Shown: positions 983 through 60,165 of the stretch, in pieces
How positions within the stretch are numbered: position 1 is the stretch's first letter
Layout of the letters: every line of letters starts with the position of its first letter
NCBI GenBank assembly: GCA_001783065.1
Contig: MFQN01000011.1
Span: forward strand, 1 to 60,829
Source: Candidatus Magasanikbacteria bacterium RIFCSPLOWO2_12_FULL_43_12
GTDB taxonomy: Bacteria; Patescibacteriota; Patescibacteriia; Magasanikbacterales; UBA922
Direction: 5' to 3'
DNA length: 60,829 nucleotides
Made by a program: the position numbers and the translations under genes
Notes under the pieces: model-generated
What the model was told of the DNA's origin: nothing
Seen by the model: only the letters and a program-made list of their open reading frames with translations
Databases searched by the model: none

Positions 983-3157
983 TCAAAGATCATCGACATC
1001 CCGCAAAAAACTCCCGGGCTTAAATTGCCGTTTTGGTTTTTCTTCGTCAATATAAATAATTTCTTCCAGCTCGTTGTCATTAAACACCGCGCCGCGCAGA
1101 TCCGCGTCAACCAAATTTTTATTGATTTCATTGACAAACAAACTTGGTCCGCCGATTGAACCGCCGAAACTTCCAGACATTAAATAACTGATTTGCAGAT
1201 GTTTTTTCGCGCGCGTTACCGCCACGTAAAATAATCGCCGCTCTTCTTCTATTCCATTATCCTCGCGCGCCGCGCGATCATTCGGAAATTGACCATTGGA
1301 AACATTAATAATAAATACTGCCTGCCACTCCAAACCTTTGGCTTGATGAATGGTGGAAAGAACTATCTTGGACTTCAGACTTCTGTCTTCAGTCTTCGGT
1401 TGTCCGTCTGGGGCTGAAGTCTGAAGTCTGAAGTCTGAAGTCTGAAACCCCTCTTGCAAACTTGACTCGGCTAAGAATTGATCTAAATCCTCGGCTTGAT
1501 CCGCGAATTTCGCCAACTGTTCCAAATCCTGCAGCCGCTCCCGATAATCAGGATATTCATTTTCTAAATATTCGGCGTATTTACTTTCCATAATAATCCG
1601 AATCTTACCACCAACGCCAACATCAACCGTGTTTTGCAGAGGCTGAAAAACCTGCAAAAAATCATTCCACCCGACACTGGCTCTCGCCGGTAAATATTCA
1701 ATCATCCGTCCTATGTCATACGTCCTAAGTCTCTCTAAAATCACTTCAATCGTCGCCTCTCCAATCCCCACCTGCATATTTAAAACTCTCTGCCACGCGA
1801 CCGTATCTGTGGAATTATTTAATATCCGCAAATAGGCCAAAACATCTTTGACATGCGCGCGTTCAAAAAACCGCACGCCGCCGCGATAATCATAAGCGAT
1901 GCCGTGTTTTATCAGTTCCATTTCCAGCGCTTGCGAATGATGCGCGGCGCGGAATAAAACCGCGATATCTTTCGGCTCCACCCTCTCGCCAAACAACTCC
2001 TCTACCCGGCTGACGATGGCAACAGCTTCCTCGTCATTGGTATCAAACGAGTGGACTTCCGGCCGAACAAATTTTTCCCGCACGCTCTTCAATTCTTTTT
2101 GGTATTGGTTGATGTTGTTGGAAATTATGTTATTCGCCAAATTCAAAATCTCCGGCGTGGAGCGATAATTGGTTTCCAGACGAAAAATCTTCGCGTCAGG
2201 ATATTCTTTTTCAAAATCCAAAATATTTTTAACCTCCGCCGCGCGGAAACTGTAAATGCTCTGCGCGTCGTCGCCGACAACCAGCAAATTGCGATGTTTG
2301 GCGGCGATCAAACGGATAATTGACGCTTGAATTTTGTTAGTATCCTGATATTCATCAACTAAAATATATTGAAACTGCTCTTGGTATTTTTGCCGAATCT
2401 TTTCCGATTGTTGCAGCAATTTTAACCAATTAACCAACAAATCATCAAAATCCATTACATTCGCGGCTAATTTTCTTTTTTCATAATTCACCGCGATGCT
2501 TTTAATGCTGTCGGCTAACGGCAAAAAATGCTGGTACTTTAGATTCAAAACATCTTCTGTTGTCGTCTCGGAATTCCGCGCGTAGCTGACGATTGACTGC
2601 AAAACCGCCGGCGATGGAAAACGCCGCTGTGTCCGATCCACGCCTTCGTCTTTCAAGCATTGTTTAATTAAATTTGAACTATCATCGCTGTCCAAAACAG
2701 AAAAATTATTTTTATACCCCAAAAACGAACAATACTTTTTTAACACCCGATAGGCAATATGATGAAATGTCCCGGACCACGGCAAAACGGCGAGTTGGCG
2801 AACCACCTCTCTGCCCCGCCACGCCGTGGCATCTCCCCTTGTTAAGGGGAGAGGTTCGATACCCCCCGCCTTAACAAGGAGGGGTGCCCCGATTCGCATC
2901 GGGGCGGGGAGGGGGTTCACAAGCGTGGCCACCCTCTCAATCATCTCTCTCGCCGCTTTATTCGTAAAAGTTACCAACAAAATATTTTCCGGATTAATGC
3001 CTTGCTCCAGCAAATACGCCACGCGGTAAGTGATCGTCCGCGTCTTACCTGACCCAGCGCCAGCCAAAACCAAACACGGCCCGTCGGCATTCCGTACCGC
3101 GTTTAACTGTTCTTGATTTAATTCAGCTTCGTAATTTGGCATAAATAACACTTTCAA
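983..3157 (-). CDS. UvrD/PcrA/Rep-family ATP-dependent DNA helicase; carries two in-frame repeat-derived insertions
   Basis: 724 aa. Walker A AGAGSGKTRTITYRVAYLL; motifs TFTNKAAREM, GTFHH, VDEYQDTN, QAKGLEW and VAVTRAK. Extra segments VNPLPAPMRIGAPLLVKAGGIEPLPLTRGDATAWRGREVV (2812..2930) and QTSDFRLQTSAPDGQPKTEDRSLKSK (1370..1447) map to repeat elements. Confidence 0.85.
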   Translation of the reverse strand: MKVLFMPNYEAELNQEQLNAVRNADGPCLVLAGAGSGKTRTITYRVAYLLEQGINPENILLVTFTNKAAREMIERVATLVNPLPAPMRIGAPLLVKAGGIEPLPLTRGDATAWRGREVVRQLAVLPWSGTFHHIAYRVLKKYCSFLGYKNNFSVLDSDDSSNLIKQCLKDEGVDRTQRRFPSPAVLQSIVSYARNSETTTEDVLNLKYQHFLPLADSIKSIAVNYEKRKLAANVMDFDDLLVNWLKLLQQSEKIRQKYQEQFQYILVDEYQDTNKIQASIIRLIAAKHRNLLVVGDDAQSIYSFRAAEVKNILDFEKEYPDAKIFRLETNYRSTPEILNLANNIISNNINQYQKELKSVREKFVRPEVHSFDTNDEEAVAIVSRVEELFGERVEPKDIAVLFRAAHHSQALEMELIKHGIAYDYRGGVRFFERAHVKDVLAYLRILNNSTDTVAWQRVLNMQVGIGEATIEVILERLRTYDIGRMIEYLPARASVGWNDFLQVFQPLQNTVDVGVGGKIRIIMESKYAEYLENEYPDYRERLQDLEQLAKFADQAEDLDQFLAESSLQEGFQTSDFRLQTSAPDGQPKTEDRSLKSKIVLSTIHQAKGLEWQAVFIINVSNGQFPNDRAAREDNGIEEERRLFYVAVTRAKKHLQISYLMSGSFGGSIGGPSLFVNEINKNLVDADLRGAVFNDNELEEIIYIDEEKPKRQFKPGSFLRDVDDL
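1370..1447. repeat. Family-F heptamer tandem repeats (GAAGTCT)n with an inverted partner, in frame within the helicase gene
   Basis: ggacttcagacttctgtcttcagtcttcgg ... ctgaagtctgaagtctgaagtctgaagtctgaaa. Confidence 0.7.
2812..2930. repeat. Family-B GC-rich multi-hairpin element inserted in frame in the helicase gene
   Basis: Hairpins ctcccc-ttgttaa-ggggag and ccccgat-tcgc-atcgggg. Shares ggggtg(c/t)cccgattcgcatcggg with 44335..44458. Confidence 0.6.
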
Positions 3158-3833: not shown

Positions 3834-3888
3834 CCACGCCGTGGATTGCTTCGCCTGCGAAGGCTCGCAATGACAGAGCTGTCATTCC
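3833..3888. mobile_element. Family-A MITE-like palindromic element, partial copy (right end plus a truncated left-end fragment)
   Basis: gtggattgcttcgcctgcgaaggctcgcaatgacag, then agctgtcattcc. Confidence 0.6.
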
Positions 3889-6617: not shown

Positions 6618-7022
6618 ATGGATGCAGACATAAAAAAGCCGAGAAATTTAAAAAAACTATTTGGCTCTGTAATCTTGGCGACGACTCTTTTGTTGGTAGC
6701 GCTGTTAGTTACCCTACGAACTGTGCCTCGCAATGACGAAACCAAAAAATACTCCACCAGCATCGAATCTGTCATAGCTGAAAGCGGTTTTTCAAAAAAG
6801 GATGCAGAAGGTCTCATAGCTACTGTAAATAAGCGGGCAGACGTTAAAAATATGGGAGAAATCTTGTCAATAATAAAAATAAGCAACAATGAAGCGTCTA
6901 TTGTAATTGGCTATTACCTAAACGAAAGGGGGGTGTGGGGGGCTGCTACTACATACTCCGCAGAAAAAAAGTGGGGTAAATGGACCATATTGGAAATAAA
7001 AGACAAGAATTTTGGTATGTGA
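6618..7022 (+). CDS. Hypothetical membrane-anchored protein
   Basis: 134 aa with an N-terminal transmembrane segment (LFGSVILATTLLLVALLVTL). No recognised domain. Confidence 0.4.
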   Translation: MDADIKKPRNLKKLFGSVILATTLLLVALLVTLRTVPRNDETKKYSTSIESVIAESGFSKKDAEGLIATVNKRADVKNMGEILSIIKISNNEASIVIGYYLNERGVWGAATTYSAEKKWGKWTILEIKDKNFGM

Positions 7023-7748: not shown

Positions 7749-7892
7749 CAAACAAAACACCCGGCAGACGCCGGGTGTTCCGGTGCGGAGAGCAACGGAG
7801 TTGAACCGTATCCGCTTTTGGCGGATCAGTTGTGTATCAGACAACGTCCTGTCCCACAGGCAATACTCTCCAGTCACGGGAAATATTATAAC

Positions 7893-8021: not shown

Positions 8022-9125
8022 CTACTTGATTAGCATCGCGTCCCCGAAACTATAAAACCGATATTTCTCCTCCACTGCTTTCTGATAAGATTCTAACATA
8101 AACTGTGTGTCGCAAGCAAATGAACTAACTAACATCAAAAGCGTTGACTTCGGCAAGTGAAAATTCGTAATCATCGCGTCAACCACCTTGAATTCAAAGC
8201 CTGGTTTGATAAAGATGTTGATGTCGCCTTTATACGCTCTAACTAAAAATGTATAGCTATTTCCATTTATCTCTACATTATCTCTATCTATTTTATTATT
8301 TAATCCAGCCACTCCCTCAAGTGTTCTCACCGTCGTGGTCCCAATAGCAATAACTCTTCTCCCTTCTTCCTTCGCCAAATTAATCTTCTCCGCGTTTTCT
8401 TCGTCCAGCTCCACCCATTCGCTGTGCATAGTATGATCTTCCACGCGTTCGGATTTAACCGGTAAAAAAGTACCGAGCCCGACATGCAAAGTTATTTCCG
8501 CGAACTCAACGCCTTTGTCCCGCAACTTTTGAATCAACTCCGGCGTAAAATGAAACCCGGCTGTCGGCGCCGCGACCGAACCCTCGTATTTGGCATAAAC
8601 GGTCTGGTAACTCTCTAACTCGTGCGGCTCGTCTTTAATATACGGCGGCACCGGAATGTGGCCGTATTTATTCGCCTTTTCTCTCACTTGCTCTTCTGAA
8701 TCAACAAACTGAACCAAAATCTCACCTGTCGGTTCTTTCACTACCACATCGCAATAAAAATCCGGCGCGAATCTAACTCTCATCCCAGGTTCAACATGTT
8801 TCCCCGGCTTCGCCAATACTTTCCACACTCCCTCGTTTTCCATCGGCCTGATTAAAAATATTTCAATCAATTTTTTGTGTTCAAATAATTCTTGATCGTC
8901 AATCGTGGTTAATTTCCCAAACAATCTGGCCTTAAAAACTTTAGAATTATTCCAAACAATCAAATCGCCTTTTTTAAAAAAATCAATAATATCATAAAAA
9001 TGGCGATGTTCAATCGTTTGGGTTTTTCTATCAACAACCATCAGCCGCGAAGAATCGCGCGGATTTGTTGGTGTTTGCGCGATTAATTCGGAAGGTAAAT
9101 TGTAATCAAAATCTTTGGCTAACAT
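8022..9125 (-). CDS. queA: S-adenosylmethionine:tRNA ribosyltransferase-isomerase
   Basis: 367 aa. N-terminus MLAKDFDYNLPSELIAQTPTNPRDSSRLMVV is typical of QueA, with homology along its length. Confidence 0.9.
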   Translation of the reverse strand: MLAKDFDYNLPSELIAQTPTNPRDSSRLMVVDRKTQTIEHRHFYDIIDFFKKGDLIVWNNSKVFKARLFGKLTTIDDQELFEHKKLIEIFLIRPMENEGVWKVLAKPGKHVEPGMRVRFAPDFYCDVVVKEPTGEILVQFVDSEEQVREKANKYGHIPVPPYIKDEPHELESYQTVYAKYEGSVAAPTAGFHFTPELIQKLRDKGVEFAEITLHVGLGTFLPVKSERVEDHTMHSEWVELDEENAEKINLAKEEGRRVIAIGTTTVRTLEGVAGLNNKIDRDNVEINGNSYTFLVRAYKGDINIFIKPGFEFKVVDAMITNFHLPKSTLLMLVSSFACDTQFMLESYQKAVEEKYRFYSFGDAMLIK

Positions 9126-9128
9126 AAA

Positions 9129-9167
9129 TGCTTACGAGGCTTACGAGGCTGACAAGGCTTACAAAGC
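9129..9167. repeat. Family-E 9-mer tandem array (GGCTTACRA)n directly upstream of the queA start
   Basis: gcttacgag gcttacgag gctgacaag gcttacaaa. Confidence 0.7.
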
Positions 9168-9244
9168 TATTGAACCGATTTAATAAGTTTAAATGTAAGA
9201 TTTAATAGCGTTGTATACAGTTTCACAACTGTTAAACGGCTAAT

Positions 9245-9367
9245 CTGTCATTGCGAGGAGCTCGCGCGATCCCTCACATTCACTCGAGACAGGCTCCGCA
9301 ATCCAGCAATCGCATTAGAACGCGATAACGGTGTGGATTGCTTCGCCTGCGAAGGCTCGCAATGACT
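9245..9367. mobile_element. Family-A MITE-like element, full copy
   Basis: Terminal inverted repeats ctgtcattgcgaggagc ... gctcgcaatgac. Internal gtggattgcttcgcctgcgaaggctc. Confidence 0.7.
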
Positions 9368-9466
9368 TTCAAAAGTGTAAACAACGCTGGCTATTCCTAC
9401 AACTAATTTCACAAACTCTAACGCTTTTTTCCAAACCAACAAATTATGATAATCCTGCATATCGTA

Positions 9467-9510
9467 TTGTCAGCCTTGTAAGCCTAGTAAGCATTGTCAG
9501 CCTAGTACAC
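9467..9510. repeat. Family-E array in inverse orientation (TGTCAGCCTTGTAAGCC...)
   Basis: Forms a long inverted repeat with 9129..9167 around the MITE at 9245..9367. Confidence 0.6.
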
Positions 9511-10590
9511 CTCCACTCTGTTCGCATTATGTTCATCTAGAATTTTCGCGTATTTAACTTCACCCTCCGGGGTGGTCAAAAAGTACCAATAATCATTCTT
9601 TTCCGGATATAACGCGGCTTTGATTGATTCCAAAGACGGATTGCTGATCGGACTTGGCGGCAGGCCCGGATATTTGTAAGTATTCCACGGCGAGTTGCTG
9701 TCGCGATCTTCTTTGGTGGTGAAAACATCTCCGCTTTTATTTACCGCGTAATGCACAGTTGAATCCGCCTGCAATGCCCAGTTTTTATTATACCTCCTCC
9801 ACAAAATATCCGCGGCCAAACGCTTATCTTTTTCCGACTTTACTTCACGCTCCAAAATACTGGCCATAATTAAAATATCATAAAAACTCTTTCCTTGTTT
9901 CCCCATTTCCTGCCGCATCTCATCGGTAATTTCTTGCTCGCGCTGTTGAATTAATTTTAAGACAATATCTTCAAGCTTCGCGTTTTTATAAATCCGATAA
10001 GTTTCCGGCGCCAAATATCCTTCGTAACTCACATACCACGGCTTATCTTCCAAAATTTCCAGATCTGTCCTGAGCGACCCGTCCCGAGATGGACCGAGGG
10101 AAGCCGAAGGATCTGAACTCAACTTTGGCGCGCCTTCTTTCCAATTTTTATAACTCACCGCCGGCAAACCGACCAGCTCGGTCAATTCTTCGGCCTGAAA
10201 CATGCCGTTAAATTCAAAATACTGCGCGATATCGCGGATAGTCCACCCGGGAATAATCGTAATTTCTCTTTCATTCAACCCTGGTCGGGACAAAACATCG
10301 GCCACTCGCGCCAAAGTGATCGGCGCGGCTAATTCAAACTCGCCAAAGTTTATTTTTTTATCAAGTCCTTGCCAAACCAAATATTTTTTAAACAGCCACG
10401 CGCTTCTAATAACTTGTTCAATTTCTAATCGTTCGGCCAGCTCTGTCACGTTCTCGCCGGCTTTAACTTCAAATACAACTTTGCCTGCCCCCACCTGCGC
10501 CTCGGTGGTGTAAATTTCGGAATACAAAAACCAGGCTATGAAGAGTAAACATAGTAGAGTGACAATTAAGAAGATTTTTTTTATGGACAC
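9502..10590 (-). CDS. mltG: Endolytic murein transglycosylase MltG (YceG-like); carries an in-frame 42-nt repeat insertion
   Basis: 362 aa. N-terminal transmembrane helix; motifs IIPGWTIRDIAQ, EDIVLKLIQQ, WNTYKYPGLPPSPISNPSL and YWYFLTT. The repeat at 10067..10110 encodes DPSASLGPSRDGSLRTD. Confidence 0.8.
   Translation of the reverse strand: MSIKKIFLIVTLLCLLFIAWFLYSEIYTTEAQVGAGKVVFEVKAGENVTELAERLEIEQVIRSAWLFKKYLVWQGLDKKINFGEFELAAPITLARVADVLSRPGLNEREITIIPGWTIRDIAQYFEFNGMFQAEELTELVGLPAVSYKNWKEGAPKLSSDPSASLGPSRDGSLRTDLEILEDKPWYVSYEGYLAPETYRIYKNAKLEDIVLKLIQQREQEITDEMRQEMGKQGKSFYDILIMASILEREVKSEKDKRLAADILWRRYNKNWALQADSTVHYAVNKSGDVFTTKEDRDSNSPWNTYKYPGLPPSPISNPSLESIKAALYPEKNDYWYFLTTPEGEVKYAKILDEHNANRVEVY
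10067..10110. repeat. Family-C 42-nt GC-rich element, copy in mltG
   Basis: gtcctgagcgacccgtcccgagatggaccgagggaagccgaagg. 40 of 42 nt identical to the reverse complement of 27016..27058. Confidence 0.7.
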
Positions 10591-18106: not shown

Positions 18107-18302
18107 TAAAGACGCACTGTTGTGCGTCTCTCTACGCAGATGATGTGGATAATTATGCTTGACAAATCTAATTCTTTCTGATAAACTTTACTTAGGTATC
18201 AATTGGTGAGACCGCATACGCGGAACGTACCAAAAAAACAACCCCGAAAGGGGCTGTTTTCATTTCAAAAAATTTGATATAATATTTGCCGGCGGTGAGA
18301 AT

Positions 18303-18391
18303 GGAGAGTAAACTCGGCCGGTATACGAGCGCCAATTGATACCTGGATGGTACGGTTCAAACCGTATGTGGTTCGACTCCACTACTCTCCG
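18303..18391 (+). ncRNA. tRNA-like element (degenerate tRNA or structured ncRNA); not a confident tRNA
   Basis: Perfect 7-bp acceptor-like helix GGAGAGT/ACTCTCC. T-arm gtgg-TTCGACT-ccac directly abutting it. D-arm ctcg-gccggtata-cgag. A 16-nt hairpin tacgg-ttcaaa-ccgta. No acceptable anticodon arm. An upstream promoter-like TTGACA-N17-TAAACT lies at about 18159-18192, and a 12-nt perfect complement pairs 18209-18220 with 18333-18344. Confidence 0.25.
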
Positions 18392-18452
18392 CCGCTAAAA
18401 CAGTTCTTTATCATGAGGACTGTTTTTTAGTATCTCGGTAACCACGACAATT

Positions 18453-20351: not shown

Positions 20352-20451
20352 ACGTCATTGCGAGGAGCTCGCGCTACGAAGCAATCTATACAATCACGAA
20401 AATGCAACGACGGTGTGGATTGCTTCGCCTGCGAAGGCTCGCAATGACAGA
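20352..20451. mobile_element. Family-A MITE-like element
   Basis: gtcattgcgaggagctcgcg...gtggattgcttcgcctgcgaaggctcgcaatgacag. Confidence 0.7.
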
Positions 20452-20553: not shown

Positions 20554-20582
20554 AAGCCCCTCGCGGGGCTTTTTTCTATTAT
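20554..20582. terminator. Bidirectional rho-independent terminator downstream of rpsA
   Basis: agcccctcgcggggct hairpin with T-runs on both strands. Confidence 0.6.
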
Positions 20583-21838
20583 TCCTTTTTCTCTTCAACC
20601 TTATCTTCTAATTTCCCCTCGCTCTTTTCTTCTTTTTTCTTTGTTTTCTCCTTTTTCTCTGTCTTCTCTTCCTTGTCCGCCGCAGCTCCGCCGAGCGAAG
20701 TGGAGGAGGGTTTCTCTTTAGCCGTACCCGTCAATTTCAACCCTAGTCTGTGCTCTGACGGCTCAACTGAAATCACTTCAAATTTTTCTTTTTGACCGAT
20801 TTTAAACCTGTCTCTCAATTCTTTCGGATCGCGAGCGCCGAGTTCGGAAATGTGCGCCAAACCATGGATGTCATTGTCTAATTTAATCATCAAACCAAAG
20901 GCCTCTATCTTGTGTATCTCGCCTTCCACTTCTTGGCCGACTTTGTATTTATCTTTAACAATTTTCCACGGATCATCAACCAACCGTTTGATTGATAAAT
21001 AAATTTTTGATTTGTTGATGTCAATAACCTGCGCTTTCACGCGGTCGCCGACTTTCAACACGTCTTTGGGATGGTCAATTCTCTGCCAAACAATTTCTGA
21101 AATATGAACCAATCCTTCCAAACCCTCGCCAAACTTGATAAACGCGCCAAAAGAAGTCAGCGCGCTTACTTCGCCATCAACCATCTGGCCGACTTTATAC
21201 GAGTCCAACACCGCTTTTTGATCGTCTTCCCAAACCGCTTTTTCAGATACAATTAATTTCTCTTCCTTATCATTTACATCAATCACTTTAACTTGCAATT
21301 CTCGACCGATCAATTTTTGTAAGTGTTCTAAAATTCGATTGCGATCGCCGCCGGGTACGCGCGGATAATTATCCGGGCTTAATTGCGACACCGGCATAAA
21401 ACCTGACAAAGAATCAACCTGCATCATCAACCCGCCTCGGTTGGCTTGAGTTACTTTCGCGCCAATCGTCAGACCGTCTTCTTTATATTTCTCCATGCGA
21501 GACCAAACCAAACGATGTCCCGCAGCGCGGAAAGAAAGCTCCATTTCGCCGTTTTCGTTTTCCAACTCCAATACGGTCGCTTCAACTTCATCGCCGACTT
21601 TGATATTGGAAAATTCGCGTGATTCCGTATATAGTTCCGGCCCGCGCACTACGCCGGTTATCATACCCTCAATGTCCATGCGGACCGCGCCGCTTTCCAC
21701 AGAAATCACCTTGCCCTTAATCAAATCGCCTGCTTGTGGAGTTTTAGTGAAAAAATTCTTAAGCAAAGCGGCAAAACTATTGCTGTTTTGGCCTGCGTCA
21801 GCTTTTTCGTCTTTCATATTAAAATTAAATTTAACCAA
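20579..21838 (-). CDS. rpsA: 30S ribosomal protein S1 (four S1 domains, K/E-rich C-terminal tail)
   Basis: 419 aa. Repeated S1 domain patterns (G.V..V...GA.V.......G..H.SE). Confidence 0.8.
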   Translation of the reverse strand: MVKFNFNMKDEKADAGQNSNSFAALLKNFFTKTPQAGDLIKGKVISVESGAVRMDIEGMITGVVRGPELYTESREFSNIKVGDEVEATVLELENENGEMELSFRAAGHRLVWSRMEKYKEDGLTIGAKVTQANRGGLMMQVDSLSGFMPVSQLSPDNYPRVPGGDRNRILEHLQKLIGRELQVKVIDVNDKEEKLIVSEKAVWEDDQKAVLDSYKVGQMVDGEVSALTSFGAFIKFGEGLEGLVHISEIVWQRIDHPKDVLKVGDRVKAQVIDINKSKIYLSIKRLVDDPWKIVKDKYKVGQEVEGEIHKIEAFGLMIKLDNDIHGLAHISELGARDPKELRDRFKIGQKEKFEVISVEPSEHRLGLKLTGTAKEKPSSTSLGGAAADKEEKTEKKEKTKKKEEKSEGKLEDKVEEKKE

Positions 21839-26536: not shown

Positions 26537-27166
26537 TCACTTCCCCAACCTCCTCAACGCCTCTTTTACTAATTTCCCCGCATCTTTCCCATCCACTGAC
26601 AAACCTTTAACCGCTTCGCGGGCTTCTTCGCGACTGTAACCCAAAGAAACCAGCCCGTCAATCACCTCACCCAACACTTCACTATCGCCATCGCCAAACT
26701 TTATGGACTTTACGGACTTTGTGACTTTTGACTTCAACTCAACAACCACTCGTTCCGCCGTCTTTTTGCCAATGCCGCTGACTTTCGTGAGATAACCAAC
26801 ATCGCCGCGCCCAATCGCCGCGCTGATTTCTTCCAAACTGCCTAATTCCAAAATATGCATGGCGCTTTTTGGCCCAATGCCGCTGACGGTTAACAACAAC
26901 TCAAAAAAACTTTTTTCTTCCAAAGTTTCAAAGCCAAACAAATCCAGCGCGTTCTCCCCCACCCGCAAATAAGTATATAAACTGATACTATCTCCGACTT
27001 GCAAACTTGAACACCCTTCGGCTTCCCTCGGTCCGTCTCGGGACGGGTCGCTCATGGCAGGCTTGCGCACTTTCACACATACCTTATATCCCACCCCTCC
27101 GCTCGTCAATACCAAAACTGACCGCTCGCTTTTTTCTATAATTTTGCCTTTAAGATACGAAATCAT
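26537..27166 (-). CDS. ruvA: Holliday junction branch migration complex subunit RuvA; carries an in-frame 42-nt repeat insertion
   Basis: 209 aa. MISYLKGKI, helix-hairpin-helix LLTVSGIGPKSAMHIL and VSGIGKKTAERVVVELK. The repeat at 27016..27058 encodes MSDPSRDGPREAEG. Confidence 0.85.
   Translation of the reverse strand: MISYLKGKIIEKSERSVLVLTSGGVGYKVCVKVRKPAMSDPSRDGPREAEGCSSLQVGDSISLYTYLRVGENALDLFGFETLEEKSFFELLLTVSGIGPKSAMHILELGSLEEISAAIGRGDVGYLTKVSGIGKKTAERVVVELKSKVTKSVKSIKFGDGDSEVLGEVIDGLVSLGYSREEAREAVKGLSVDGKDAGKLVKEALRRLGK
27016..27058. repeat. Family-C 42-nt GC-rich element, copy in ruvA (opposite orientation relative to the coding strand)
   Basis: ccttcggcttccctcggtccgtctcgggacgggtcgctcatgg. 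Confidence 0.7.
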
Positions 27167-27178
27167 AATTCAAAACTC

Positions 27179-27212
27179 AAAACACAATTAACAAAACACA
27201 ACAACGACCAAA
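27179..27212. repeat. Family-G conserved A/C-rich element (core 17-mer CAATTAACAAAACACAA), copy 1
   Basis: The exact 17-mer recurs at 56193..56209 and 58041..58057. Confidence 0.6.
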
Positions 27213-30354: not shown

Positions 30355-30474
30355 CTGTCATTGCGAGGAGCGAGGAACGAGCGACGCGGCAATCCATCGC
30401 CAATTTTTTTCTGAGCTAAGCGCGACTGGATTGCTTCGTCGGCCGACGAACGTCGGCCTCCTCGCAATGACAGA
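30355..30474. mobile_element. Family-A MITE-like element
   Basis: ctgtcattgcgaggagcgaggaacgagcgacgcggcaatcca...cctcctcgcaatgacaga. Confidence 0.7.
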
Positions 30475-33209: not shown

Positions 33210-33348
33210 CTGTCATTGCGAGGAGCTCGCGCGATCCCTCGCATTCACTCGGGACAGGCTCCGCAATCCATCGCCAATTTTTTTCTGAGCTAAGCGCGAC
33301 TGGATTGCTTCGTCGGCCGACGAACATCGGCCTCCTCGCAATGACAGA
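33210..33348. mobile_element. Family-A MITE-like element (longest copy)
   Basis: A composite of modules seen at 9245 and 30355, with perfect terminal inverted repeats ctgtcattgcgaggag / ctcctcgcaatgacag. Confidence 0.7.
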
Positions 33349-50729: not shown

Positions 50730-50829
50730 CTGTCATTGCGAGCCTTCGCAGGCGAAGCAATCCACGCTCGTCGACCATTGGCGACTGGATTGCTTCGTCG
50801 TCGCGCGAGCTCCTCCTCGCAATGACAGA
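50730..50829. mobile_element. Family-A MITE-like element (palindromic variant with about 35-bp terminal inverted repeats)
   Basis: tgtcattgcgagccttcgcaggcgaagcaatccac ... gactggattgcttcg...ctcctcctcgcaatgacaga. Confidence 0.7.
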
Positions 50830-52657: not shown

Positions 52658-56176
<3,519 letters not shown>

Positions 56177-56210
56177 TACAAAACACAAAACCCAATTAAC
56201 AAAACACAAA
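56177..56210. repeat. Family-G element, copy 2 (between the gyrB stop and its terminator)
   Basis: acaaaacacaaaacccaattaacaaaacacaaaaaacc. Confidence 0.6.
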
Positions 56211-56246
56211 AAACCGTCTCGGTTTTGCACAGGGACGGTTTTTTGG
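56210..56246 (+). terminator. Rho-independent terminator after gyrB
   Basis: aaccgtc-...-gacggtt hairpin followed by ttttt. The conserved 17-mer (family G) lies just upstream. Confidence 0.5.
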
Positions 56247-56300
56247 TGTATATTAAAGCTTGGCTAAAATAAGCAAAAAAATTATACACAGCCAATACCC

Positions 56301-56329
56301 TTGACAAAACCTCGCCATTATTATAACAT
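56301..56329 (+). promoter_or_regulatory. Promoter of the secE-nusG-rplK operon (TTGACA-N17-TAACAT), followed by a leader hairpin gcggcc-aaa-ggccgt-ttttt
   Basis: Seen directly. Confidence 0.45.
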
Positions 56330-56405
56330 ATTAATAATCAAGCGGCCAAAGGCCGTTTTTAAGTAGACATCGGCAATCAGCTTTCAAACTTCAGCCTTAA
56401 TCGAT

Positions 56406-56434
56406 TGAAGTCCGAAGTCTGATCAACCGAAGTC
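56406..56434. repeat. Family-F repeats directly upstream of the secE ATG
   Basis: tgaagtccgaagtctgatcaaccgaagtc. Confidence 0.6.
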
Positions 56435-56441
56435 AGCATCT

Positions 56442-56633
56442 ATGAACCCCATCACCAAGCTCAAAAACTATTTCAAAGAATCAGTCGCGGAAATGAAAAA
56501 AGTTGTCTGGCCGACGAAAAAACAGACCACGACATATACTTTAATCGTCATCGGCTTGAGTCTCGGCGTTGCCATCTTTTTCGGCATCTTGGATTACGCT
56601 TTCAATCTCGGACTGGAAAAAATTATTAAATAG
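56442..56633 (+). CDS. secE: Preprotein translocase subunit SecE
   Basis: 63 aa with a single C-terminal transmembrane helix. KKVVWPTKKQTT is typical of SecE. It lies directly upstream of nusG. Confidence 0.8.
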   Translation: MNPITKLKNYFKESVAEMKKVVWPTKKQTTTYTLIVIGLSLGVAIFFGILDYAFNLGLEKIIK

Positions 56634-56697
56634 ACTTCGGCTTTCGGACTTCAGACTTCCGACAAGTTGCCGACAATCACAGCTGAAGTCTGAAAGC
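56633..56697. repeat. Family-F inverted repeat pair in the secE-nusG spacer (potential long hairpin)
   Basis: gacttcggctttcggacttcagacttccgac ... gctgaagtctgaaagctg. Confidence 0.6.
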
Positions 56698-56710
56698 TGA
56701 CAGCAACATT

Positions 56711-57256
56711 ATGGCTAAACAAAACCTCCAATTAGGACGCCGCTGGTATGTGCTCCACACCTATAGCGGCTATGAAGAAAACGTCAAACGCAATTTGGAA
56801 CAAAGAATTGAATCTTTTGACATGCGCGACAAAATTTTTGGCGTATTGGTGCCGAAGGAAAAAAAGATTAAAATCAAAAACGGCAAACGCAATGTGATTG
56901 AAGAAAAAGTCTTCCCGGGTTATGTTTTGGTGGAAATGATTGTTACCGATGATTCGTGGTATGTGGTCAGAAACACTCCGAATGTTACCGGCTTCATCGG
57001 TTCCGGCACCACGCCAACCCCGATTGATCAAAAAGAAATAGAAGTTTTACAAAAAAGAATGGGAGTGGATGAACCTACCCACCAGATTGATGTGTCGCTC
57101 AACGAACCGGTGCGCATTATTGACGGCCCGTTCAAAAATTTTGAAGGCAAAATTTCCAATGTTGATGAAGAGCGCGGCAAAGTCAAAGTGCTGGTCAATA
57201 TGTTTGGTCGCGAAACGCCGGTGGAGTTGGACGCGTTGCAAGTGAAGAAAATATAA
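56711..57256 (+). CDS. nusG: Transcription termination/antitermination protein NusG
   Basis: 181 aa. RWYVLHTYSGYEENV (NGN domain). KOW motif in the C-terminal region. Confidence 0.9.
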   Translation: MAKQNLQLGRRWYVLHTYSGYEENVKRNLEQRIESFDMRDKIFGVLVPKEKKIKIKNGKRNVIEEKVFPGYVLVEMIVTDDSWYVVRNTPNVTGFIGSGTTPTPIDQKEIEVLQKRMGVDEPTHQIDVSLNEPVRIIDGPFKNFEGKISNVDEERGKVKVLVNMFGRETPVELDALQVKKI

Positions 57257-57258
57257 AC

Positions 57259-57288
57259 GGACTTCAGCGATCAGACTTCAGACTTCGG
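57259..57288. repeat. Family-F repeats just after nusG
   Basis: ggacttcagcgatcagacttcagacttcgg. Confidence 0.6.
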
Positions 57289-57291
57289 CTT

Positions 57292-57505
57292 ATGAGTTAC
57301 CGATTTGAACAACTAGAGGTTTGGAAACTGGCCAGACAATTTGTCAATCTGAAGAATTGCTTACACATCCATGGAGGAAGTACTTGCGGCATCATTTATA
57401 GCTTTAGATCAAAAATACATTAGCCAAGAAAGATGCGATTTTATATATAATTCCAGCAATATCCTTGGCAAAAAAATAAATGCGTTAATTAAAAGTTTAA
57501 AGTAA
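57292..57505 (+). pseudogene. Decayed remnant of a four-helix-bundle protein gene (23S rRNA intervening-sequence protein family) between nusG and rplK
   Basis: Frame 0 from the ATG at 57292 gives MSYRFEQLEVWKLARQFVNL, matching the family N-terminus (FE.LEVW.KA..L...IY), then diverges to a stop. A +1 frame ending at 57505 gives ...NILGKKINALIKSLK*, matching the family C-terminus (KMLNGLINSLK). The middle is missing or frameshifted. The nusG-rplK spacer is unusually long at 340 nt. Confidence 0.4.
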
Positions 57506-57549
57506 TCAACTCGCTGGTCTAAAAAGACGCTTCTCAGCGCGTTAATAAT

Positions 57550-57590
57550 CACTTTCGGGCAGAAGTCAGAAGACCGAAGTCTGAAGTCCA
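57550..57590. repeat. Family-F repeats directly upstream of the rplK ATG
   Basis: cgggcagaagtcagaagaccgaagtctgaagtcc. Confidence 0.6.
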
Positions 57591-57596
57591 ATCACT

Positions 57597-58022
57597 ATGG
57601 TCAAAAAATTAATCACCCAAATCAAACTGCAAATTGCCGGCGGAGCGGCTAATCCGGCGCCACCGGTCGGACCGGCTTTGGGCCAGCATGGCGTGAATAT
57701 CCAGGGTTTTTGCAAAGAATTCAATGATAAAACCCAAGACCGCAAAGGAGAAACTGTGCCGGTGATTATTAATGTTTATGAAGACCGCTCTTTCAGCTTC
57801 ATAACCAAAGTTGCTCCGGCCAGCGAACTAATTAAAAAAGCGATCGGTTTGGAAAAAGGAGCGGCTAATCCGCTGAAAGATAAGGTTGGCAAAATCACCA
57901 AAGCCCAACTCATGAAAATCGCGGAAGTGAAAATGAAAGACATGAACACGGAAAATCTTGATTCGGCCGTGCGTTCACTTGCTGGTACGGCCAGACAGAT
58001 GGGAGTGCTGGTGGAAGGGTGA
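57597..58022 (+). CDS. rplK: 50S ribosomal protein L11
   Basis: 141 aa. [26 protein letters not shown]. Confidence 0.95.
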
Positions 58023-58028
58023 TTTTCA

Positions 58029-58058
58029 GAACACAAAACTCAATTAACAAAACACAAC
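58029..58058. repeat. Family-G element, copy 3 (between the rplK stop and its terminator)
   Basis: acacaaaactcaattaacaaaacacaacg. Confidence 0.6.
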
Positions 58059-58060
58059 GA

Positions 58061-58089
58061 ACCCGCTGAAAAGCGGGTTTTGAATTTTC
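58061..58089 (+). terminator. Rho-independent terminator after rplK
   Basis: cccgct-gaaa-agcggg followed by ttttgaatttt, preceded by the family-G 17-mer. Confidence 0.6.
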
Positions 58090-58143
58090 AATTTCCACCA
58101 TCTTCTGCTATAATATAATTGCTTTTAATTATTCCTCATCCCT

Positions 58144-59058
58144 ATGCAACAGTCAAAAATCGCTATCATCGGCGCCGGCGCGGTTGGCGCGACAACCGCT
58201 TACGTGGCCACATTAAAAAATTTAGCCGCGGAAATATTATTAATTGATGTTAATGAAACAAAAGAAGAAGGCGAGGTAATGGATATTGCCGATGGTTTGA
58301 GTTTGGTGGAAACCGGATGCGTCAAAGGCGCGGATTTCAAAGACGCGCGCGACGCGGATATTATTGTCATTACCGCCGGCGCGCCGCAAAAGCCGGGGGA
58401 AACTCGTTTGGATTTGGTGAAAAAAAACACGGAAATTCAAAAATCAATTTTCAAACAAATCGGCAAACTAAAATCAACCGCGATTGTTATCATGGTTGCG
58501 AATCCGGTGGATGTCTTGACTCTCGCGGCGCAAAAAATCAGCGGCCTGCCGCGCCAGCAGGTTTTCGGCAGCGGCACGACATTAGACACGATGCGGTTTA
58601 AAGCAACGCTCGCGAAAAAACTTGAAGTAAGCCCGCAAAGCGTGCACGGTTATGTTCTGGGCGAACATGGCGACAGCGAATTTGTAGCCTGGAGCACGGT
58701 AACTGTCGGCGGCGTGCCGATTGATAAAATAAAAGAAATAACCGCGAAAGATAAACAAGAGATTGAAAAGAAAGTCAAAAAAGAAGCGTATGAAATCATT
58801 AATCGCAAAGGCGCGACTTTTTACGGCATCGCTTTAGTATTGTCTGATATTATTGAAGCAATTTTGTATAATCAACACAAAATTATGCCGGTCTCCAGTT
58901 TGTTGCTGGAATGCCACGACGTCAGCGGTGTTTGTCTCGGCATGCCGGCAGTGCTTGGCAGAGGCGGAGTGGAAAAAATTTGGCCATTGCCGCTGAACGC
59001 GACAGAAAAAAAGAGATTACAAAATTCTGCGAAGATTTTTGAGCAGTTTTCAAAATAA
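58144..59058 (+). CDS. ldh: L-lactate dehydrogenase
   Basis: 304 aa. IAIIGAGAVGA, ITAGAPQKPGETRLDL (the Gln at the substrate-specificity position is LDH-type), GEHGDSEF. Confidence 0.8.
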   Translation: MQQSKIAIIGAGAVGATTAYVATLKNLAAEILLIDVNETKEEGEVMDIADGLSLVETGCVKGADFKDARDADIIVITAGAPQKPGETRLDLVKKNTEIQKSIFKQIGKLKSTAIVIMVANPVDVLTLAAQKISGLPRQQVFGSGTTLDTMRFKATLAKKLEVSPQSVHGYVLGEHGDSEFVAWSTVTVGGVPIDKIKEITAKDKQEIEKKVKKEAYEIINRKGATFYGIALVLSDIIEAILYNQHKIMPVSSLLLECHDVSGVCLGMPAVLGRGGVEKIWPLPLNATEKKRLQNSAKIFEQFSK

Positions 59059-59105
59059 TTGTGCCGACGCTTCATTGTTAAATTGCTAAATTGTAGAATT
59101 GAAAA

Positions 59106-59996
59106 TTGTTTAAAAATTACAAATTGAAAATTAAAAATTACCAAAGCATTGTGTTCTCTATGAACCAACAAATAAAATTAATCCTCTTACTTACCATTGT
59201 TTTGATAATCGTGGGCGCTGGTTGTTTTACCAAAACTCCAAAAACAACAACTGAAACAGCAACCACGACAGTTGAAATTATAAAAAAGAAACCAAAAATT
59301 GACACTTCGGCTAATCCGGCTCAAAACTATTGTGAAAAAACCGGCAATGAGTTGATTATTCGCTTTGATGAAACCGCTTCAAGCTCAATCGCCTACTGCC
59401 GTTTTGCCGACATGACCGAATGCGAGGTGGAAAAATATTTTAGACAAACCTGCGCGCCCGGACAAAGCGCCGAGCAATACAGCCCGCAAGAAAAAATGGA
59501 CAATTTTGCCACTTGCACCAACGAATACGAACCGGTTTGCGGCGCAAACGGCACAACTTACACCAATACCTGCCTGGCGCAAGTTCAAGGAATAATTATC
59601 ACCCATACCGGCGTCTGCGCTCCGGCAGAACAAAAGCAAACAGCGACTGAAAACAAAAATAGCGCGATAGTAAGTAACAGCGCCCAAACAAAAAAACCAA
59701 CGGCCGCTGTTAGCCAAAGCGCCAACGACCCTTCAGGATGGCTTGGGATAGTTAAAGATTTCGCGCTCTCCGCGCCAAAATCAAACCCGCCGGCATTTAT
59801 TGAAAAATGCGCTTATTCCGGCATTGATTCATACTATTTCTCGCCAGGCTGCGATGGATGCGTTACAACTTTATATGATAAGAACGGTAAAATAGTCTGC
59901 TACCCGAGCAATGATCTGGATAACACTTGTCCCGCGTATTTCACCGGCGCTTATCGCTCAAACTATTGCTCCAAGGTGTGGAAGGACGAAAGATAA
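59106..59996 (+). CDS. Secreted Cys-rich protein with a DUF333 (putative hemolysin-like) domain and a Kazal-type protease-inhibitor domain
   Basis: 296 aa. Signal/transmembrane segment. NPAQNYCEKTGNELIIRFDETASSSIAYCRF (DUF333 pattern). CTNEYEPVCGANGTTYTNTCLAQVQGIIITHTGVC (Kazal). C-terminal Cys-rich module. Confidence 0.55.
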   Translation: MFKNYKLKIKNYQSIVFSMNQQIKLILLLTIVLIIVGAGCFTKTPKTTTETATTTVEIIKKKPKIDTSANPAQNYCEKTGNELIIRFDETASSSIAYCRFADMTECEVEKYFRQTCAPGQSAEQYSPQEKMDNFATCTNEYEPVCGANGTTYTNTCLAQVQGIIITHTGVCAPAEQKQTATENKNSAIVSNSAQTKKPTAAVSQSANDPSGWLGIVKDFALSAPKSNPPAFIEKCAYSGIDSYYFSPGCDGCVTTLYDKNGKIVCYPSNDLDNTCPAYFTGAYRSNYCSKVWKDER

Positions 59997-60035
59997 GGCT
60001 TACGAGGCCGACAAGGCTTACAAAGCCCACAAGGT
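59996..60035. repeat. Family-E array, left arm flanking the rplA promoter
   Basis: aaggcttacg aggccgaca aggcttaca aagcccaca agg. Confidence 0.6.
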
Positions 60036-60038
60036 CTC

Positions 60039-60067
60039 TTGACAACATTGACCATATATTATATAAC
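60039..60067 (+). promoter_or_regulatory. Stand-alone promoter of rplA (TTGACA-N17-TATAAC), with an approximately 100-nt structured leader
   Basis: Seen directly. Leader ggtgg...ccacc helix at about 60088-60124. Flanked by inverted (AAGGCTTAC)n arrays. Confidence 0.45.
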
Positions 60068-60124
60068 AAGGGTACTTTTAGTAACCGGTGGGACCTCTGC
60101 CATCCAGGGGGTTAGAACCACCAA

Positions 60125-60165
60125 TCTTACGAAGCCTTGTAAGCATTGCACGCCTCGTAAGCCTT
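60125..60165. repeat. Family-E array, right arm (inverse orientation), ending 8 nt before the rplA ATG
   Basis: tcttacgaagccttgtaagcattgcacgcctcgtaagcc. Confidence 0.6.

Follow-up and report, generated by a model that had tools for sequence, protein, structure and literature searches.

The sequence analysed here, referred to as the window, is a stretch of 60,829 nt (contig MFQN01000011.1) from a metagenome-assembled genome of Candidatus Magasanikbacteria bacterium RIFCSPLOWO2_12_FULL_43_12, a member of the candidate phyla radiation (CPR, Patescibacteria) from the Rifle aquifer. The window is compact, about 90 % of it being coding and 9.9 % intergenic, and MFQI01000039.1 and MFPZ01000020.1 are identical to it or at most 1 nt apart. 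Its genes include a UvrD-type helicase, gyrB with an intein, secE, nusG and rplK, followed by ldh/mdh, a DUF333/Kazal gene and rplA; Rfam returned no rRNA match at gathering thresholds over the whole window. The subject of this report is a set of short tandem arrays of the heptamer GAAGTCY and its complement, which stand in the spacers of the secE-nusG-rplK operon and in frame inside several genes and which, between nusG and rplK, enclose a decayed gene for a four-helix-bundle protein from the family of 23S rRNA intervening-sequence proteins (23S_rRNA_IVP or S23p, here IVP).

The GAAGTCY arrays and the nusG-rplK cassette

Searching the window with the probe GAAGTCYGAAGTC at no more than one mismatch gave 12 matches against 0.09 expected, a number reached in none of 100 shuffles, and clusters of at least three AAGTC sites number 7 compared with 0 in 30 shuffles. 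All sites named in a preliminary description of this DNA were recovered (Table 1), and the in-frame arrays it reported in the helicase and gyrB genes, like those in all three secE-nusG-rplK spacers, are borne out by the sequence. The units that it placed in GyrB's K-rich extension at the N-terminus are present as degenerate AAGTC repeats; the unit of the second GyrB array, given there as 8 nt, has a period of 7 according to Tandem Repeats Finder (TRF). That description did not list the array in the RuvA linker, nor did it see that several unit families exist, that an IVP pseudogene lies between the arms in nusG-rplK and that relatives carry an intact gene at the same site. The polarity of the arrays is always 5' (GACTTCR)n ... 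3' (GAAGTCY)n. Short tandem repeats are generally abundant in this DNA: exact repeats of period 5-12 occur 40 times compared with about 5 in shuffles (roughly 8-fold), and 25 of the 44 TRF arrays of period 6-10 are mostly intergenic, far above the intergenic share of the window (P 1.5e-14). An array typically begins 0-7 nt downstream of a stop codon, and its end is 4-20 nt away from the start codon that follows. In the secE leader, the units end 8 nt 5' of the secE ATG. Between secE and nusG, the 5' arm (ACTTCGG/CTTTCGG/ACTTCAG/ACTTCCG) begins immediately 3' of the stop codon and the 3' arm (CTGAAGTCTGAAAGCTG) stops 6 nt short of the nusG ATG.

The prototype of these arrangements is the nusG-rplK spacer, which consists of a stop codon, (GACTTCR)n, the IVP pseudogene, the native rplK leader, (GAAGTCY)n and a start codon. 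The pseudogene has its ATG 5 nt downstream of the 5' arm and encodes MSYRFEQLEVWKLARQFV... It was located by tblastn using the intact orthologue of a relative, L025, as query, with amino acids 4-21 aligning at 57298-57351 and amino acids 69-114 at 57353-57490; the matches lie in two frames, and the gene carries a frameshift and has lost about 47 codons internally. The L025 gene (6601-6946; PF05635, E 2.7e-35; TIGR02436, E 6.9e-33) is likewise found in the nusG-rplK spacer, between (GGACTAC)n and (GTAGTC)n. The 3' arm of L025, CTGTAGT/CTGTAGA/CTGTAGT/CCGTAGT/CC, matches that of the window unit by unit, and a complementary T<->A change separates the two sequences in every unit of both arms. In the minimum free energy structure of the window's spacer, both arrays together close the loop, and the arm-arm duplex has an energy of -33.5 kcal/mol (z -5.0, reached in 0/300 shuffles). 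The large loop contains a small hairpin at 57511-57540 which also occurs upstream of rplK in L016, L017, L026, L223, L230, L222, L224 and L025 with a covarying outer stem, and which is probably the native, ribosomal-protein autoregulatory leader of rplK. Neither the hairpins nor the rplK-leader-like motif correspond to any Rfam family, even at E<=1 (56100-60300).

The elements of this operon are predicted to lie inside one transcription unit. A promoter-like site (56301-56329) and a terminator (58059-58080) flank secE, nusG, the IVP pseudogene and rplK, while the + strand between 56330 and 58059 contains no promoter-like or terminator-like site and no U-tracts; the secE-nusG-rplK hairpins are thus internal to one predicted mRNA. 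Canonical terminators are separate from the hairpins and are found in the 56210-56226 region and at 58059-58080. Further downstream, rplK and rplA are parted by the ldh/mdh and DUF333/Kazal genes, each with its own promoter-like site (58144-59996), so that the usual rplKA operon is split in this lineage. As a separate observation on terminators, the motif ACAAAACNCAATTAACAAAACACAA, for which no chance occurrence is expected, is found at 27185-27201, 56193-56209 and 58041-58057, and with one mismatch at 43125-43141. These sites lie just 3' of stop codons and directly 5' of intrinsic-terminator hairpins (ruvA's neighbour, gyrB, rplK).

Table 1 Repeat arrays, hairpins and associated features of the window, with folding energies where calculated.
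Feature	Positions	Strand	Composition or context	Basis	Fold (kcal/mol; z)
Helicase hairpin	1371-1446	-	arm (GACTTCW)3.9 at 1371-1397, 16-nt loop, arm (CTGAAGT)4.7 at 1414-1446	TRF, translation	sense strand -33.9; z -4.6. Antisense strand -46.5; z -8.1
Second cassette, nonamer arms	9130-9507	-	(GCTTACRAG)n 9130-9168, (CTYGTAAGC)n 9467-9507		9120-9515: -138.8; z -5.9
RuvA-linker AAGTC-type array, 7-9 nt	26698-26734	-		TRF, AAGTC/GACTT cluster, Pfam	
Compact nonamer-armed hairpin	39367-39426	-	fills spacer upstream of ftsW/rodA		-41.8
GyrB N-terminal degenerate AAGTC repeats, spacing 7-9 nt	52757-52855	+	within K-rich extension		
GyrB solo perfect array (TCCGAAG)4.4	55927-55957	+		TRF	
secE 5' leader, short hairpin and GAAGTCY units	56387-56434 (units 56407-56434)	+			z -2.7
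secE-nusG spacer hairpin	56634-56704	+			-28.7; z -4.6
nusG-rplK cassette, 5' arm (GACTTCR)n	57259-57291	+		TRF	whole spacer -82.5; z -2.9
Decayed 23S_rRNA_IVP (four-helix-bundle, S23p) gene	57292-57505	+		tblastn with intact L025 gene, E 2e-17	
Small hairpin, 3' strand GCUUCUC	57511-57540	+	inside large loop of nusG-rplK cassette, upstream of rplK		
nusG-rplK cassette, 3' arm CAGAAGT/CAGAAGA/CCGAAGT/CTGAAGT/CC	57556-57589	+	7 nt before rplK ATG		
Nonamer arms upstream of rplA	59997-60034 and 60130-60180	+	span entire DUF333/Kazal gene-rplA spacer (59997-60180)		spacer -64.1; z -4.8

IVP cassettes in other CPR genomes

Homologues of the L025 IVP protein were sampled and their contigs fetched. 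Five of the six homologues sampled first are intact genes in the nusG-rplK spacer (L222, L223, L224, L228, L230), all five with arms carrying the core GACTNC/GNAGTC, and an intact gene occupies the same spacer in L040. Complementary tandem-unit arms were also found in other contexts, namely between pheS and pheT (L034), at a cysH-like/GTPase gene pair (L233) and at a Gracilibacteria locus (L235); the IVP genes of L227 and L231 have none. Overall, complementary tandem 7-9-mer arms are present in 12/14 IVP cassettes examined in CPR genomes, a count that includes the window's own nonamer cassette (9130-9507) with its tentative IVP remnant. Arm-arm duplexes reach z -4.2 to -9.9, their observed energies being matched by no more than one of 300 shuffles, and z is at or below -4.2 in 9/10 cassettes of one set and 2/3 of another. 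The nusG-rplK IVP gene spans many CPR lineages (Magasanikbacteria, Yanofskybacteria and others), yet among 80 species representatives retrieved by way of NusG, 77 lack it. Such a distribution suggests either an old resident that has often been lost or site-specific re-insertion.

Arm complementarity is kept across species through changes on both arms. Seven lineages together display the unit pairs GACTTC/GAAGTC, GACTAC/GTAGTC, GACTCC/GGAGTC, GACTAT/ATAGTC and GACTAA/TTAGTC. In an alignment of the basal unit pairs from these lineages, 3 pairs are changed on both sides and 92 % of cells are paired; the covariation score is 0.307 compared with 0.095 in shuffles (0/500 reach the observed value), and slid controls collapse. 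The alignment was made by hand from hand-picked units and, since the units were thus chosen by the analyst, we treat the covariation as supportive rather than independent evidence.

The GAAGTCY family itself is clade-restricted, as the strict pattern (AGTCNNN)2AGTC was found only in the window and L025 among 81 sources (the window and 80 relatives). In a metagenome scan, (GAAGTCY)2GAAGTC was found in 120 contigs, the majority of which are unrelated sequences of high GC content or even of eukaryote-like character (L179), and only L096, with an insert in secA, and L115 matched the window; because most of these contigs are unrelated, the scan is uninformative on this lineage.

The secE-nusG hairpin has a narrower distribution. 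Among the 80 relatives, the majority have fewer than 25 nt in this spacer and strong hairpins are limited to some lineages, indicating that secE-nusG hairpins are derived and non-essential. One 923-nt contig, L010, may represent an empty-site allele. When L010:1-50 is compared with window positions 56590-56730, it reads secE-TAG-GACT-ATG-nusG and lacks the 77-nt hairpin spacer, while its NusG protein is identical and nusG differs by 4 nt; the junction is supported by 29 nt at the contig end only. No clean duplication is visible when this single candidate is set against the filled allele. Two strains of 97-98 % identity (L217, L218) have 0 substitutions in the spacers. As the differences in their contigs sit in clustered tracts, the unchanged spacers provide no evidence of constraint.

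Copies inside genes and further repeat families

ORF-less hairpins and solo arms of the GAAGTCY unit are found in neighbouring spacers and in length-variable, disordered linkers of the helicase, GyrB and RuvA proteins, ORF denoting open reading frame. The helicase gene (983-3142, minus strand) contains its hairpin in frame in a length-variable linker immediately before KIVLSTIHQAKGLEW; the arrays read FQTSDFRLQTSAPDGQPKTEDRSLKS and the whole insert QTSDFRLQTSAPDGQPKTEDRSLKS. The insert is missing from 19 aligned homologues, with relatives carrying nothing or other palindrome-encoded peptides, e.g. VETQNFASL, at this position. An in-frame palindrome at a permissive site and missing from orthologues is what characterises Rickettsia palindromic elements (RPEs), and the helicase insert has all three properties; the GyrB array adds no length. 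A second in-frame helicase insert at 2790-2910 (amino acids ~80-125) is made of G/C-rich palindromes, e.g. TCTCCCCTTAACAAGGGGAGA, and relatives have PSP..GEG-type inserts at this and three further sites. Given the recurrence of such inserts at several sites, the helicase is a mosaic of palindrome-encoded loops.

GyrB (52718-56176) is a 1152-amino-acid protein with an intein at amino acids ~500-919 (PF14890) and a K-rich N-terminal extension. As MPIKRV.KGR, with which the extension starts, is conserved in relatives, the extension is genuinely translated; the gene starts at 52718 and the NCBI gene call (1111 amino acids) begins too late. The perfect GyrB array is located in a variable E/K-rich linker and brings no net length gain compared with relatives. 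The RuvA array lies between the HHH_5 and RuvA_C domains. Outside the window, a further CPR contig from Rifle (L096) has a closely similar hairpin in frame within its secA gene, and queA of L025 (9091-10401) encodes 436 amino acids compared with 367 in the window. This longer QueA includes an inverted AAGTC-type array pair 400 nt apart, with both arrays in frame (AKVQSPKSRV, TLDFRLSTLV), plus other palindrome-encoded peptides. Within proteins, the only copies retained are those that add whole codons and whose orientation or unit variant is free of stops. Forward (GAAGTCT)n has TGA in all three frames, and copies within ORFs avoid stops via the C variant of the unit, the only one used in GyrB, or via the reverse orientation (helicase, secA). 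The preliminary description had held that in-frame copy number is confined to multiples of three units. The arithmetic is sound, yet it does not describe these arrays, which contain 4.4-4.7 units; it is the whole insert, including partial units and the loop, that is a multiple of three.

At least five unit families are present in the window, two of which, GAAGTCY and the nonamer AAGCCTYGT, occur as inverted pairs. The nonamer has 17 matches compared with 0.18 expected and shares the fixed polarity of the heptamer, (GCTTACRAG)n ... (CTYGTAAGC)n; further unit families are CCTACRY, ATTAGTA, AGATAAG and CTACATCA. Between its nonamer arms, the second cassette contains a candidate remnant of an IVP N-terminus at 9389-9451 (tblastn E 0.063, a tentative assignment) and a nested GTCATTGCGAG palindrome at 9247-9366. 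The compact nonamer hairpin upstream of ftsW/rodA has the layout stop TGA ... arms ... TTTTATTT ATG.

A second palindromic family, CTGTCATTGCGAG...CTCGCAATGACAG, of ~90-135 nt, has 14 arm matches against 1 expected, with sites at 3864, 5707, 6727, 9247-9366, 20354-20448, 30357-30471, 33212-33345 and 50732-50826. One of its copies is nested in the nonamer cassette and two single arms are located within ORFs (tgt and ORF 6618-7022). Elsewhere in the window, the tRNA-Ile(GAT) called by ARAGORN at 7785-7871 is 87 nt long, does not reach the Rfam gathering score and may hold an insertion or intron. Both ARAGORN and Rfam pass over a sequence at ~18300-18410 that resembles a tRNA and has a GGTTCGACTCC T-arm.

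Interpretation, alternatives and related systems

We propose, at a probability of roughly 0.6, that the GAAGTCY arrays make up the arms of elements that resemble intervening sequences (IVSs), are palindromic, form hairpins and have stems built of tandem 7-nt units. Stems of 20-35 bp are long enough for RNase III. Judging from rRNA IVSs and Correia elements, stems of this size would form in the polycistronic RNA and serve as RNase III substrates, and cleavage would cut the operon RNA at cistron boundaries and free the loop. That all units of both arms have changed in step suggests concerted evolution, in which the tandem-unit build would arise from replication slippage and arm-to-arm correction; such a stem would be robust, since one unit more or fewer changes no more than the register in which the arms pair. 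Taken together, the elements give the impression of being selfish or nearly neutral, not essential. The preliminary description had suggested that the intergenic pairs act as processing or attenuation structures and had named the fold of the secE-nusG spacer as a check. This fold is strong (Table 1) and, together with the other strong folds, the single predicted transcription unit and the IVS architecture, agrees in outline with processing; attenuation finds no support, as the + strand of 56330-58059 has neither U-tracts nor the G+C-rich stem followed by a U-tract that defines terminators and attenuators.

Several observations weigh against this interpretation. The perfect GyrB array has no partner arm and is unstructured (fold z +1.8), as are several arrays in 5' untranslated regions. 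Folding energies and G.U counts reveal no consistent strand bias, the sense strand being better in ~6/23 and the antisense strand in ~11/23 comparisons; conservation could therefore act on DNA or reflect a DNA-level homogenising mechanism. Native leaders are enclosed by the arms in the nusG-rplK (57511-57540) and rplA spacers, which counts against a simple transposon because a transposed arm-cargo-arm unit does not predict them. The synteny of IVP with nusG and rplK across lineages could mean that the cassette is a functional operon member and not selfish. RNase III processing at these stems is suggested by analogy only, and Pfam scans of the window's proteins detected no rnc gene. Likewise, no target-site duplication, transposase or REP-associated tyrosine transposase (RAYT; REP, repetitive extragenic palindrome) was seen in the window or the loci examined.

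The arrays might instead be functional translation elements, which we regard as a minor possibility. S1 or another RNA-binding protein would use the 3' arm before a start codon as a landing or standby site, or, in a coupling version covered by the same estimate, the stem would bring the upstream stop to the downstream start, such that the base of the stem is melted by a terminating ribosome, which then re-initiates. Initiation led by Shine-Dalgarno (SD) sites seems to be absent from the genome: an SD-like 4-mer (AGGA/GGAG/GAGG within -22..-4) is present in only 4/42 genes of the window, leaders are 73 % A+T and in most of them position -1 is T. The window encodes an S1 protein of four domains (20579-21838), the arms closely adjoin stop and start codons, and the same proposal has been made for TAACTGA heptamers abutting start codons in the SD-poor leaders of Beggiatoaceae, ribosomal-protein operons included (PMC4679880). 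However, most genes of the window and the same spacers of most relatives are without an array, and units differ by locus and species, leaving no single binding motif. Any insert in so compact a spacer adjoins both codons automatically, pairing is without sense-strand bias and copies within ORFs are useless for initiation.

The absence of strand bias, with antisense pairing equal or better, also fits a purely DNA-level action, in which a recombinase or transposase (REP/RAYT-like or MITE-like, MITE denoting miniature inverted-repeat transposable element) would act on the palindromes as cruciforms or single-strand hairpins, or in which the palindromes would be products of template-switch replication, with no RNA role. 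The scatter of unit families over 55 kb, the nested insertions, the concerted change of both arms that sets each unit of the window apart from its L025 counterpart and the candidate empty site in L010 fit this view too. We nevertheless find it doubtful given the enclosed native leaders and the lack of any observed transposase, RAYT or target-site duplication, and because the nusG-rplK position is kept over many lineages and looks vertical rather than the outcome of active transposition.

Independent neutral slippage without any common identity is very improbable. It would account for the ~8-fold excess of period 5-12 repeats across the window and for (GAAGTCY)3 in many unrelated high-GC metagenome contigs, but not for one unit recurring at 7-8 loci with constant GACTTC...GAAGTC polarity, for arm complementarity far above shuffles with arms covarying across species, or for the association of the arrays with IVP genes in 12/14 cassettes. 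Contingency-type slippage that switches or tunes the helicase, GyrB or the operon, as the preliminary description had envisaged, can practically be set aside: although some arrays are perfect (4.4-4.7 units) and heptamer copy number differs between strains in the Coxiella IVS (PMC4990558), no unit was gained or lost in 20 loci from independent assemblies (at least 16 assemblies; L001-L010, L211-L220; some 97-98 % identical, the diversity covering 97-100 % identity only) or in 11 helicase cluster members, where the hairpin is identical, the arrays are short and mostly imperfect, and a change of one unit would frameshift essential housekeeping genes, so that contingency variation is unsupported within the diversity sampled and the arrays provide no evidence of phase variation.

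Further candidates were dropped. A role of the 3' arms as three-frame stop pads fits (GAAGTCT)n, (GTAGTC)n and (ATTAGTA)n and does not fit CCTACRC, CATCCTA, CTTATCT or the nonamers. For attC/integron, retron, diversity-generating retroelement (DGR) and CRISPR systems, no integrase, reverse transcriptase or cas genes were found, and the arms pair across cargo.

Beyond the IVS-like reading, a bolder version can be formulated which, taken as a whole, is speculative and improbable. Stems and IVP gene would together be a 'messenger-RNA intervening sequence' module, conserved in ribosomal-protein operons and others of CPR bacteria. Either an RNase III cut or binding by the pentameric Avd-like IVP protein would set cistron boundaries and downstream translation in organisms without Shine-Dalgarno sites, essential proteins would gain new disordered linkers from the same self-homogenising stems and IVSs would be a general transcript-resident class.

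Should the IVS-like reading be correct, IVS-type elements are not confined to rRNA and reside in protein-operon spacers of Patescibacteria at lineage-conserved positions (nusG-IVP-rplK). This would offer a handle on the long-unexplained 23S_rRNA_IVP/four-helix-bundle family, which is related to the DGR protein Avd, and would account for the abundance of short tandem and palindromic repeats in CPR spacers and protein linkers. The repeat-encoded peptides in GyrB, helicase, SecA, QueA and RuvA would be inserts, not domains, and RNase III-type ends would be expected in existing aquifer metatranscriptomes. The searchable literature yielded no account of IVP cassettes that lie between protein-coding genes and have stems made of tandem units.

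Four groups of known repeats bear comparison. The TAACTGA repeats of Beggiatoaceae and the STRR (short tandemly repeated repetitive) sequences of heterocystous cyanobacteria are similarly tandem heptamers in 2-6 copies, mostly intergenic and a few nt from starts, in SD-poor leaders that include ribosomal-protein operons, with some copies in ORFs in the stop-free orientation only (PMC4679880; PMC4692102). Each of those genomes has one unit, almost always in direct sets (169 direct, 1 indirect), whereas several unit families and inverted, stem-forming pairs around IVP genes are found here, which places our arrays outside that group. Correia/ERIC-type MITEs are also intergenic inverted-repeat elements co-transcribed with genes, and Correia hairpins, formed by their terminal repeats, are cut by RNase III in mRNAs (PMC10969869). 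MITEs are expected as many near-identical full-length copies alongside a related transposase-bearing insertion sequence. The elements described here share units, their arms are low-complexity tandem repeats, the cassettes keep their positions across species, no target-site duplication, full-length consensus or related transposase was found in the loci examined, and none of the window's Pfam matches is a transposase.

RPEs, which insert in frame, are likewise palindromes at permissive sites of unrelated housekeeping genes in reduced genomes and add a peptide to the protein (PMC10969869). They are 100-150 bp long with a conserved consensus and peptide, whereas the inserts here are tandem heptamers of ~30-80 nt which encode a periodic peptide (DFRLQTS/EVRSPKS) and share their units with intergenic stems.

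The rRNA IVSs of Coxiella, Leptospira, Brucella and CPR bacteria, in which IVP ORFs are known within CPR rRNA insertions (PMC11270868), have the same architecture of a complementary-terminus stem around a four-helix-bundle (PF05635) ORF. In the Coxiella 23S IVS, a 28-bp stem carries 2-4 tandem GACAGAT heptamers on its 5' side just upstream of the S23p start, RNase III cleaves at the first repeat, and the ORF is prone to decay whereas the stem is retained (PMC4990558). Excision by RNase III without re-ligation is known for rRNA IVSs and would apply here by analogy. In contrast to rRNA IVSs, both arms of the cassettes described here are made up wholly of tandem 7-9-mers, and ORF-less copies are found in neighbouring spacers and ORFs. 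The cassettes occupy spacers of protein operons (nusG-rplK, pheS-pheT, cysH-cysN-like, yceG-queA) instead of a 23S or 16S rRNA helix, while complementary termini and a loop-encoded IVP are common to both.

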